Shown piece by piece: positions 1,271-6,581 of a DNA stretch of 17,425 nt. The DNA lies in the IMG/VR virus record IMGVR_UViG_2531839586_000008. One strand, given 5' to 3'. This DNA is from a virus. Lineage: Duplodnaviria; Heunggongvirae; Uroviricota; Caudoviricetes. The notes under the pieces are model-generated. The model ran no database searches. It worked only from the letters and a program-made list of their open reading frames with translations, and had not been told where the DNA came from. Made by a program: the position numbers and the translations under genes. Each line of letters opens with the position of its first letter. Within the stretch, counting starts at the first letter, position 1.

Positions 1271-1681
1271 TTAGTGTGGAAACATTTGTGATGTGCTCTG
1301 TATGTTTTCAGTAAAGAGTAATGAATTATCAAAGGCATAGTAATATCTTTTTTGTTCGTGGATATTTGTAACCCACCGAAAAACTCCTGCTTTAGCAAGG
1401 TTTCTTCTGTATTCCTGAAATGTGATCTCTCTGGATTTCAGCTTATTAGAGGTCGTTTCTATAAGATGCCTATCCTTTGAAAATTTGACAGACACAATGT
1501 TTTTTAGGCCCTTTAATAACACTGTATTATCATTTTTTAATACAATATGAACATTCTCTGTGGCTAAATAGTAAATGTAATGTGAGACATTATGACGTTT
1601 TAGCTCAGAATAAAACCATTGATAGTTTAAATCGTTTCGAACTTTATCAAATATTTGTTTAAAAATGACTACCTGATCCAT
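1271..1681 (-). CDS. DUF1398-family prophage protein (YdfO/YbcV-like), 136 aa
   Basis: Minus-strand ORF. Start chosen at the ATG (MDQVV...) that has a GGAAGG Shine-Dalgarno 7 nt upstream, rather than the upstream GTG at 1723. The region is markedly AT-rich compared with flanking phage DNA. Length and sequence resemble the E. coli cryptic-prophage proteins YdfO/YbcV (recalled, not searched). Confidence 0.7.
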
Positions 1682-1739
1682 AGATAAACCTTCCATGTGA
1701 TATGAGGGGGGCGTAGTCTGCACGATTATCTAAATTGCT

Positions 1740-1973
1740 TCAATCTGGTCTGATCTGTTTTCTGAGCAATTCAGTAATGTCACTCTTTTCTTTGTTTGCT
1801 TCAGGAGAAACTCTTTTTTCTGAGCACAGTCTCCGGCGGCAGGCTTCAATGACCCAGGCTGAGAAATTCCCGGACCCTTTTTGATCAAGAGCGATGTTAA
1901 TTTGTTCAATCATTTGGTTAGGAAAGCGGATGTTGCGGGTTGTTGTTCTGCGGGTTCTGTTCTTCGTTGACAT
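1740..1973 (-). CDS. DUF3950-family small protein with ribbon-helix-helix-like core (YnfO/YlcI-like), 77 aa
   Basis: Minus-strand ORF MSTKNRTRRTTTRNIRFPNQMIEQINIALDQKGSGNFSAWVIEACRRRL... The basic N-terminal tail followed by a beta-strand/helix/helix pattern is typical of RHH (CopG/Arc-type) DNA-binding proteins. It sits immediately next to cos/Nu1, as ynfO/ylcI sit next to nohA/nohD in E. coli K-12 cryptic prophages. Confidence 0.7.
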   Translation of the reverse strand: MSTKNRTRRTTTRNIRFPNQMIEQINIALDQKGSGNFSAWVIEACRRRLCSEKRVSPEANKEKSDITELLRKQIRPD

Positions 1974-2172
1974 GAGGTTGCCCTGTATTCAGTGTCACTG
2001 ATTTGTATTGTCTGAAGTTGTTTTTACGTTAAGTTGATGCAGATCAATTAATACGATACCTGCGTCATAATTGATTATTTGACGTGGTTTGATGGCGTAG
2101 ATGCACGTTGTGACATGCAGATGATAATTATTATCATTTTGCGGATCCTTTCCGGCGATCCGACAGGTTACG

Positions 2173-2184
2173 GGGCGGCGACCT
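2173..2184 (+). other. cosN, the 12-nt cohesive-end sequence GGGCGGCGACCT (terminase nicking site)
   Basis: Exact match to the lambda left cohesive end, preceded by ...CCGACAGGTTACG as at the lambda right end, and located about 190 bp upstream of Nu1 as in lambda. Confidence 0.85.
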
Positions 2185-2361: not shown

Positions 2362-2881
2362 ATGGAAGTCAACAAAAAGCAGCTGGCTGACATTTTCGGC
2401 GCGAGTATCCGTACCATTCAGAACTGGCAGGAACAGGGAATGCCCGTTCTGCGAGGCGGTGGCAAGGGTAATGAGGTGCTTTATGACTCTGCCGCCGTCA
2501 TAAAATGGTATGCCGAAAGGGATGCTGAAATTGAGAACGAAAAGCTGCGCCGGGAGGTTGAAGAACTGCGGCAGGCCAGCGAGGCAGATCTCCAGCCAGG
2601 GACTATTGAGTACGAACGCCATCGACTTACGCGTGCGCAGGCCGACGCACAGGAACTGAAGAATGCCAGAGACTCCGCTGAAGTGGTGGAAACCGCATTC
2701 TGTACTTTCGTGTTGTCGCGGATCGCAGGTGAAATTGCCAGTATTCTCGACGGGATCCCCCTGTCGGTGCAGCGGCGTTTTCCGGAACTGGAAAACCGAC
2801 ATGTTGATTTCCTGAAACGGGATATCATCAAAGCCATGAACAAAGCAGCCGCGCTGGATGAACTGATACCGGGGTTGCTGA

Positions 2882-2907
<26 letters not shown>
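2362..2907 (+). CDS. nu1: Terminase small subunit Nu1
   Basis: 181-aa ORF MEVNKKQLADIFGASIRTIQNWQEQGMPVLRGGGKGNEVLYDSAAVIKWYAERD..., recognisable as lambda gpNu1 (winged-HTH N-terminus). Sits directly downstream of cosB. Confidence 0.95.

Positions 2908-6581
<3,674 letters not shown>

Follow-up and report, generated by a model that had tools for sequence, protein, structure and literature searches.

The ynfO-ydfO-type gene pair beside cos in a lambda-like Escherichia coli prophage: a predicted ribbon-helix-helix protein and a DUF1398 protein at a locus linked to Fur and PdhR

The stretch of DNA considered here, hereafter the window, is the 17,425-nucleotide IMG/VR virus record IMGVR_UViG_2531839586_000008, a lambda-like prophage of Escherichia coli with 98.8% identity along its length to prophages of several enterotoxigenic E. 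coli genomes. Our subject is a pair of genes on the minus strand, located between rha on the left and cos, Nu1 and A on the right. The upstream gene (1740-1973) is of the ynfO type and encodes a 77-residue protein of the DUF3950 (domain of unknown function 3950), or YlcI-YnfO, family, predicted to be a ribbon-helix-helix (RHH) DNA binder. The downstream gene (1271-1681, stop codon at 1271-1273) encodes a DUF1398 protein of the YdfO type. Its longest reading frame covers 1271-1723, and the ATG at 1681 is the likely start, which gives a product of 136 residues and a spacer of 58 nucleotides (1682-1739) to the DUF3950 gene. An earlier reading of the window from its letters alone (the sequence-only reading) had placed two minus-strand genes 58 bp apart between rha and cos, and the open reading frames (ORFs) bear this out. 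It had also put the pair forward as the best candidate in the window for an uncharacterised accessory function. The element is, however, already known, both as ynfO-ydfO and as ORFs of the lambda right end, and roughly one in two complete E. coli genomes carries it.

The 77-residue protein is matched by PF13132 (DUF3950) with an E value of 4.9e-21 (74.8 bits against a cut-off of 25) and also by the NCBIfam model NF041551, YlcI_YnfO_N (E 6.4e-9, 35.7 bits against a cut-off of 30). The family is small, with 112 clusters at 50% identity among 1.84 billion representatives, a count inflated by many clusters that apparently derive from error-prone, frameshifted sequencing of lambda control DNA. Strongly basic in character (isoelectric point 10.6), the protein has an N-terminal arm rich in lysine, arginine and threonine. 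A single-chain AlphaFold2 (AF2) model, with a predicted local distance difference test score (pLDDT) of 69.6 overall and 77-84 in the core, contains an extended segment or coil at residues 14-18 and two helices, at 19-32 and 37-54, together with a further helix, predicted with less confidence, at the C terminus, and fold searches with this model return lists consisting mostly of RHH proteins. Alignment with hhalign sets RNIRFPNQMIEQINIALDQKG of DUF3950 on FNLRWPREVLDLVRKVAEENG of Arc and NFRMPMEVREKLKFRAEANG of Mnt. The matches are weak (E 0.022 and 0.14, respectively), and their register is the canonical one of strand and helix A, in which N and R fall where Arc contacts bases and the strand motif N-I-R-F-P is Arc/Mnt-like. 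The HicB-like phrog_497 matches weakly as well (E 0.007), Pfam RHH families were matched by none of 19 DUF3950 members, and a sequence search of the PDB with DUF3950 returned no matching chain. From modelling and alignment, the RHH assignment, which the sequence-only reading had also made, is well supported but unproven.

The downstream product had been described as a domain-of-unknown-function protein, and this holds: PF07166 (DUF1398) matches it over profile positions 1-119 of 119 (E 2.8e-46, 156.9 bits against a cut-off of 22), and it differs from YdfO of E. coli K-12, for which a nuclear magnetic resonance structure is available (PDB 2HH8), at only 4 of 135 aligned residues (E 2.1e-84). 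Residues invariant across DUF1398 paralogues are almost all aromatic or aliphatic, and no D, E, H, C or S is among them. A Pfam scan of the protein found DUF1398 only and no toxin or defence family, and PADLOC gave nothing beyond one chance-level match. Judged by its sequence, DUF1398 is a soluble, basic protein without an enzyme-like signature. An internal duplication was considered and rejected: a helix followed by three strands is predicted twice, yet the two halves score 26 against one another, close to the shuffle mean of 25.

In published work, expression of ydfO is strongly induced by the ionic-liquid cation [C2mim]+. The DLP12 homologue ybcV is among the genes most strongly lowered under copper stress, Nac is given as its repressor, and an ASKA clone overexpressing it gave a scorable glycogen phenotype. 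Knock-down of the lambda homologue, lambdap78, by CRISPR interference was neutral, and the gene is dispensable in lytic growth. The label 'head protein' carried by phrog_413, to which DUF1398 is assigned, is an annotation artefact, since the gene is non-essential in lytic growth and chromosomal paralogues exist. A role of YdfO in oxidative stress (PMC4077768) is likewise set aside as a citation error. The phenotype belongs to YfdO; the source of the claim, Wang et al. 2010 (PMC3105296), deals with three proteins of the CPS-53 prophage, YfdK, YfdO and YfdS, and makes no mention of ydfO.

The pair had been described as far more AT-rich than its surroundings, a statement that applies to part of it. 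The DUF1398 gene has a GC content of 31.4% (31% at third codon positions), compared with 53% for Nu1, 54% for TerL and 58% for the remainder of the window. The DUF3950 gene is at 44.0% overall, made up of a 3' tail of 37% and an RHH core (1811-1973) of 47%. Strong AT-richness is limited to the DUF1398 gene and the DUF3950 tail, and the core fits the description weakly. Alignment with lambda places a mosaic junction near 1811-1826, within the DUF3950 gene. To its right, the RHH core, intergenic region, cos and Nu1 (1811-2400) are ~96% identical to lambda, whereas the left side is unrelated. Only 8 of 245 matching phage records cover the region to at least 80%. This variable presence among similar phages, combined with a composition of 31% GC against 53-58%, is that of a moron, and separate acquisition, as suggested earlier, is upheld.

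Both ORFs are real genes under purifying selection. For DUF1398 the ratio of non-synonymous to synonymous substitution rates (dN/dS) is ~0.2 at dS 0.4-0.7 among diverged homologues and ~0.21 against the paralogue YcgX; for DUF3950 it lies between 0.06 and 0.28 in diverged pairs, for example 0.215 at dS 1.0 against phage BP-4795. The 703-bp pair is covered to at least 80% in 2,677 of 5,426 complete E. coli genomes (~49%). Moron-like position and composition, high prevalence and purifying selection would all suit an anti-phage or superinfection-exclusion function of DUF1398, alone or with DUF3950, and genes in the neighbouring hotspot are often protective. We nevertheless regard such a function as extremely unlikely, given that the PADLOC search went no further than chance level, that no link to it was found in the literature and that DUF1398 paralogues occur in ordinary chromosomal contexts.

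The regulatory signals around the pair would tie it to the host. A perfect 7-1-7 Fur box (TGATAATTATTATCA / TGATAATnATTATCA) lies at 2122-2136, centred 156 nucleotides upstream of the DUF3950 ATG and 233 nucleotides upstream of Nu1, with one match in the window against 0.01 expected. It is also found in lambda, PhiR70_1 and PhiR29_1, and it stands at the fixed distance of 156 nucleotides upstream in 167 of 203 DUF3950 genes in the fetched loci. These loci, here and below, are the best 80 matches of each search and so the closest relatives, and they are for that reason not independent observations. The distance of 233 nucleotides from Nu1 identifies the box with the published 'nohA -233' site, which in the Qin prophage was recovered by in vivo Fur-binding selection, was gel-shifted with Fur and scored 22.3 bits, its DLP12 copy scoring 25.3 bits; Chen et al. 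modelled a Fur-controlled promoter for nohA (PMC2189734). Overlapping the box on the plus strand is a sigma-70-like promoter (GTGACA-16-TATCAT, 2110-2137; 10 of 12 consensus matches) directed through cos to Nu1. From this site the sequence reads through cosQ and cosN into Nu1, and the cosN hairpin with its T-run was flagged as terminator-like (2171-2188). The Fur site and the promoter-like site could give rise in lysogens to iron-responsive transcription of the terminase genes, or to a short RNA spanning cos. Rfam contains no family matching this region of the window, a PrrF match over the Fur box and cos being far below threshold (22 bits against 90).

Closer to the DUF3950 gene, an inverted repeat, ATCAATTA-N17-TAATTGAT (2043-2075), lies 70-100 nucleotides upstream of the start. 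It occurs once in the window and in none of 200 shuffles, and is a candidate operator for DUF3950. A search for an operator common to rha and the DUF3950 upstream region gave chance-level heptamer matches only. At the other end of the gene, its final codons contain a PdhR-like box, AACAGATCAGACCAGAT (1743-1759, minus strand), upstream of DUF1398, which corresponds to the K-12 ynfO/ydfO site AAcaGGTcagACCAgaT with one half-site changed from GGT to GAT. Genomic SELEX (systematic evolution of ligands by exponential enrichment) located PdhR sites at ynfO/ydfO (AAcaGGTcagACCAgaT) and between ybcV and ybcW, and ybcV mRNA was 10-fold lower in a pdhR mutant (PMC7660256). Within the spacer, a -10-like hexamer, GATAAT (1725-1730), may form part of an internal DUF1398 promoter. 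The minus strand of the spacer contains no terminator-like site and folds worse than shuffled sequence (z +1.9).

How closely the two genes belong together is best judged from their distribution. The closest relatives share a very stable gene order, Nu1(-), DUF3950(+), DUF1398(+), Rz(-), with spacers of 59-62 nucleotides in 146 fetched loci. A search of phage records with tblastn found DUF3950 in 155 and DUF1398 in 43, the latter all lambda-like coliphages, and at least 112 of the 155 carry DUF3950 without DUF1398. Lambdoids of the Shiga toxin (Stx) and HK97 types (BP-4795, 1717, PPyecE, Lys8385Vzw) have a solitary DUF3950 gene with variable opposite-strand genes beyond it, and that of BP-4795 is monocistronic, equipped with a promoter-like site and a strong intrinsic terminator of its own. 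A gene on the opposite strand, ybcW, is interposed between DUF3950 and DUF1398 in lambda, DLP12 and PhiR29_1. Solitary DUF1398 paralogues are found next to bluR (YcgX), next to yedEF in Klebsiella and in the sopE2 islet of Salmonella, and distant DUF3950 genes occur in non-phage loci, either following a TonB-dependent receptor or within a cytochrome bd-like cluster. An identical 77-residue DUF3950 protein accompanies both a YdfO-type allele and a DUF1398 allele that is 75% identical to that of the window. The survey of co-occurrence that had been suggested therefore shows linkage that is not obligate: the two families are neighbours by position rather than obligate partners.

This bears directly on the possibility of an obligate regulator-effector operon, in which a single promoter upstream of DUF3950 would serve both genes and the RHH protein, with Fur, would be a dedicated switch for DUF1398. 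Co-oriented adjacent genes with no terminator between them, the recurrent 59-62-nucleotide spacing, the Fur box at its fixed distance and the candidate operator at 2043-2075 would all be expected of such an operon. The loci in which the spacing recurs are, however, close relatives; the DUF1398 gene of lambda and DLP12 is under its own PdhR-dependent control; a PdhR-type box and a -10-like hexamer stand just upstream of the window's DUF1398 gene; and the monocistronic DUF3950 genes of HK97-type phages have nothing downstream to regulate. We consider a dedicated operon of this kind rather unlikely.

A type II toxin-antitoxin system, in which the DUF3950 tail would neutralise a DUF1398 toxin and the RHH antitoxin would autoregulate a bicistronic operon, had been suggested by the order of a small DNA binder followed by an effector. 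The genes are co-stranded and separated by a 58-nucleotide spacer without a terminator, the DUF3950 C-terminal tail varies together with the downstream arrangement (DUF1398 adjacent versus the lambda type), and the model, an RHH core plus tail, resembles RHH antitoxins that bear a C-terminal helix. The tail variation and the likeness of the model form the pattern that would be expected of a partner-binding antitoxin. Against this, either family is common without the other, and ybcW splits the pair in lambda and DLP12, where the expression of ybcV needs PdhR, which acts between ybcV and ybcW. Neither a toxin nor a defence family is matched by DUF1398, its invariant residues include none of a catalytic kind, and purifying selection acts on its solitary paralogues. 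Cells of the ASKA clone that overexpresses ybcV were viable enough for glycogen scoring, and knock-down of lambdap78 had no effect. The pair is most likely not a toxin-antitoxin system, and we hold that explanation to be very improbable; the proposal of an obligate cassette in either form is not supported, the two families being separable.

Several further observations concern the distribution of the pair. The chromosomal interval between pphA and yebY contains DUF3950 after a TonB-dependent receptor in some enterobacteria (L171-L173, 5001-5192) and a truncated DUF1398 next to sopE2 in Salmonella (L215, 3501-3839), so that one hotspot houses the two families in different lineages. One protein, P0226, is a predicted in-frame DUF3950-DUF1398 fusion of 233 residues, in which the ynfO stop codon has changed from TGA to TGG and the poly-C run of the spacer has one C fewer; this may reflect genuine read-through or an error in sequencing. 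Matches outside Escherichia (Staphylococcus, Kitasatospora, Synechocystis, Bradyrhizobium and a spider) lie in many cases on contigs of ~3.5 kb or 48.5 kb, and many are 77% identical to the query, as lambda is. When distant relatives of DUF1398 were sought with one genome per species, nearly all non-Escherichia matches were rejected as such 77%-identical lambda DNA contamination. The apparently broad taxonomic range of both families thus appears, from these identities and contig sizes, to be largely lambda control or spike-in DNA.

The position of DUF3950 raises the question of a connection to packaging. The gene directly adjoins, in divergent orientation, two packaging modules that are unrelated to each other, namely cos-Nu1-A and, at a distance of 41 bp, HNH-TerS-TerL. 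In Escherichia sp. MOD1-EC7003 (L201, 3941-5555) the pair adjoins Nu1 and TerL proteins that are 37% and 65% identical to those of the window, an arrangement from which it follows that its position is kept across diverged packaging modules. Diverged members of the family are found in integrase-primase satellites. Two of these (P0185 and P0211) are fused to a Terminase_2-type TerS N-terminal helix-turn-helix (HTH) domain, both domains scoring above Pfam cut-offs, and the fusion genes are carried alongside a second DUF3950 gene, upstream of palindrome arrays (L006, 5590-6363; L007-L010) in which TGGTACGTACCA occurs twice and GTTAAACAC is repeated. The satellite DUF3950 genes lie in divergent promoter regions dense with palindromes, a setting that speaks for a regulatory role of the protein, and the L006 satellite is itself embedded in the late region of a BP-4795-like prophage, with HNH and a fragment of terS beside it. 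Helper packaging is redirected by Rpp, which joins a DNA-binding domain like that of TerS to a dimerisation domain (PMC6739421). By analogy, the satellite DUF3950-HTH proteins may be Rpp-like packaging redirectors.

The satellite fusions and the placement against two unrelated packaging modules keep a link between DUF3950 and packaging possible. The prophage protein would then be a packaging-tied DNA binder that represses stray terminase-gene transcription in lysogens, including that from the Fur-overlapped promoter, or that takes part in cos/terminase specificity, with the satellite fusion as an Rpp-like redirector. The divergent placement, the Nu1 protein of only 37% identity beside the pair in L201, the promoter-like site under the Fur box pointing into cos and Nu1, and the resemblance of the fusions to Rpp are in its favour. 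However, the region from the lysis genes to cos is a general accessory hotspot (bor, rha, ant), so that the position of DUF3950 may be historical; distant DUF3950 genes occur in non-phage loci, and an operator shared with cos was not found. Lambda packaging genetics is not known to have needed the DUF3950 ORF. We consider a packaging role quite doubtful. On this reading, stray transcription of terminase could otherwise lead to cutting of chromosomal cos. If DUF3950 does act on the packaging module, cos would come under a further, new level of control in the most thoroughly studied of phages.

The explanation that we prefer, with slightly better than even confidence, is that the locus consists of two stacked lysogenic-conversion genes under host control of the Fur/PdhR type, one for a DNA-binding regulator resembling Arc and Mnt, the other for a host-modulating protein that is not an enzyme. 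As a ynfO-ydfO-type cassette at the right end of lambda-family chromosomes, transcribed leftward and antisense to the late operon, it would be expressed to the advantage of the lysogen and not in the service of lytic growth. DUF3950 would dimerise and bind DNA through its N-terminal arm and the N-I-R-F-P strand, and would regulate transcription, its most likely target being its own promoter in the intergenic region next to cos, where the proven host Fur site also lies. DUF1398 would probably be made both by read-through from the DUF3950 gene and from its own host-controlled promoter, with its PdhR-type box, and we infer that it acts through binding a host component.

A number of results count against this explanation. 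The structure prediction that had been called for yielded RHH-like helices for DUF3950, whereas the strand was not called in the AF2 monomer; for DUF1398, the model is poor (pLDDT 56), too low for fold comparison. Inspection of the minus strand upstream of the two genes revealed no sigma-70 consensus promoter for either, and no clear terminator was found after DUF1398. Fur control of the DUF1398 gene is unsupported, because copper lowers ybcV at the same time as it derepresses the Fur regulon, though the Fur box of DLP12 does not adjoin ybcV. The antitoxin-like tail and model of DUF3950 discussed above belong on the same side.

On the left of the pair, a rha-like regulator or anti-repressor is encoded on the plus strand (444-968; PF09669; phrog_518, E 4e-78). 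The 3' end of an IS21-family element, encoding the IstB C terminus (PF01695), occupies 1-290 and adjoins the upstream region of rha, so that the first letters of the window fall within an element of this family inserted between the lysis region and rha. Downstream of DUF1398, likewise on the minus strand, is a 44-residue ORF of ~50% GC (1049-1183), a possible gene, which phage PhiR70_1 has annotated as 'hypothetical' and which had no PHROG match. On the right, the cosN cohesive-end sequence GGGCGGCGACCT (2173-2184, plus strand), aligned to that of lambda, marks the right end of the virion chromosome and is followed by Nu1, the terminase small subunit (2362-2907, plus strand; PF07471, E 9e-101). 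TerL is 98% identical to lambda gpA except at residues 358-368 (3950-3985), where 11 residues replace 12. From the sequence, this patch looks like a short compensated frameshift that might impair terminase, in which case the prophage may be packaging-defective.

The wider interest of the pair lies in its abundance. It is among the most widespread uncharacterised gene sets of E. coli, occurring in about half of complete genomes and in lambda itself, and it is present in every cosmid or lambda control-DNA fragment that spans the region. The analysis narrows the options, speaking for an RHH regulator plus a non-enzymatic accessory protein with ties to the Fur and PdhR circuits of the host, and against a toxin-antitoxin system. 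It corrects an error in the literature, in that the oxidative-stress phenotype is that of YfdO and not YdfO, and it carries a warning that the seemingly wide taxonomic spread of both families appears to be largely contamination by lambda control DNA.

Like Arc and Mnt, the RHH repressors of P22 immI, DUF3950 is a small phage-encoded protein, and hhalign sets it in the register of their N-terminal arm, N-x-R-(aromatic)-P strand and helix pair. The pairwise sequence relationship is, however, not significant (E 0.02-0.14), the operator is a candidate, and rha and ant genes lie nearby in some phages, inconsistently. Type II RHH antitoxins (ParD, RelB, KacA/TacA, MazE) differ in that the DUF3950 partner gene is not obligatory, is no known toxin and is sometimes split off by an opposite-strand gene. 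The satellite fusions of DUF3950 with a TerS HTH recall Rpp, a TerS-mimicking DNA-binding domain joined to a dimerisation domain. With the lambdoid morons bor and lom, the cassette shares atypical composition, variable presence, dispensability for lytic growth and an orientation antisense to the late operon; it differs in that no clear consensus promoter and terminator bracket it, whereas the DUF3950 unit of BP-4795 has both.

The closest parallels are found at the same chromosome end in lambda-family phages and their remnants. The sequence-only reading had placed the pair beside Nu1 homologues in cryptic prophages of E. coli, which is correct for nohA, ynfO and ydfO of Qin and needs amending for DLP12 and lambda. 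There the same two families are present (the 64-residue ORF ylcI, ybcW, which is lambdap79, lambdap78, which is ybcV, and bor), but ybcW, on the opposite strand, and ~690 nucleotides separate the two genes; the lambda DUF3950 protein has a different, shorter tail (64 residues in all), and its DUF1398 protein is 77% identical to that of the window. In the Qin prophage of E. coli K-12 (L175), the Nu1 homologue nohA, the Fur box, DUF3950, a spacer of ~58 nucleotides and DUF1398 follow one another in the same order and orientation, and both proteins are ~96% identical to those described here. The PdhR-like box of the window differs from that of Qin by a single half-site change. Qin is a decayed remnant, whereas the prophage that carries the cassette in the window has a lambda-like structural module that is nearly complete.

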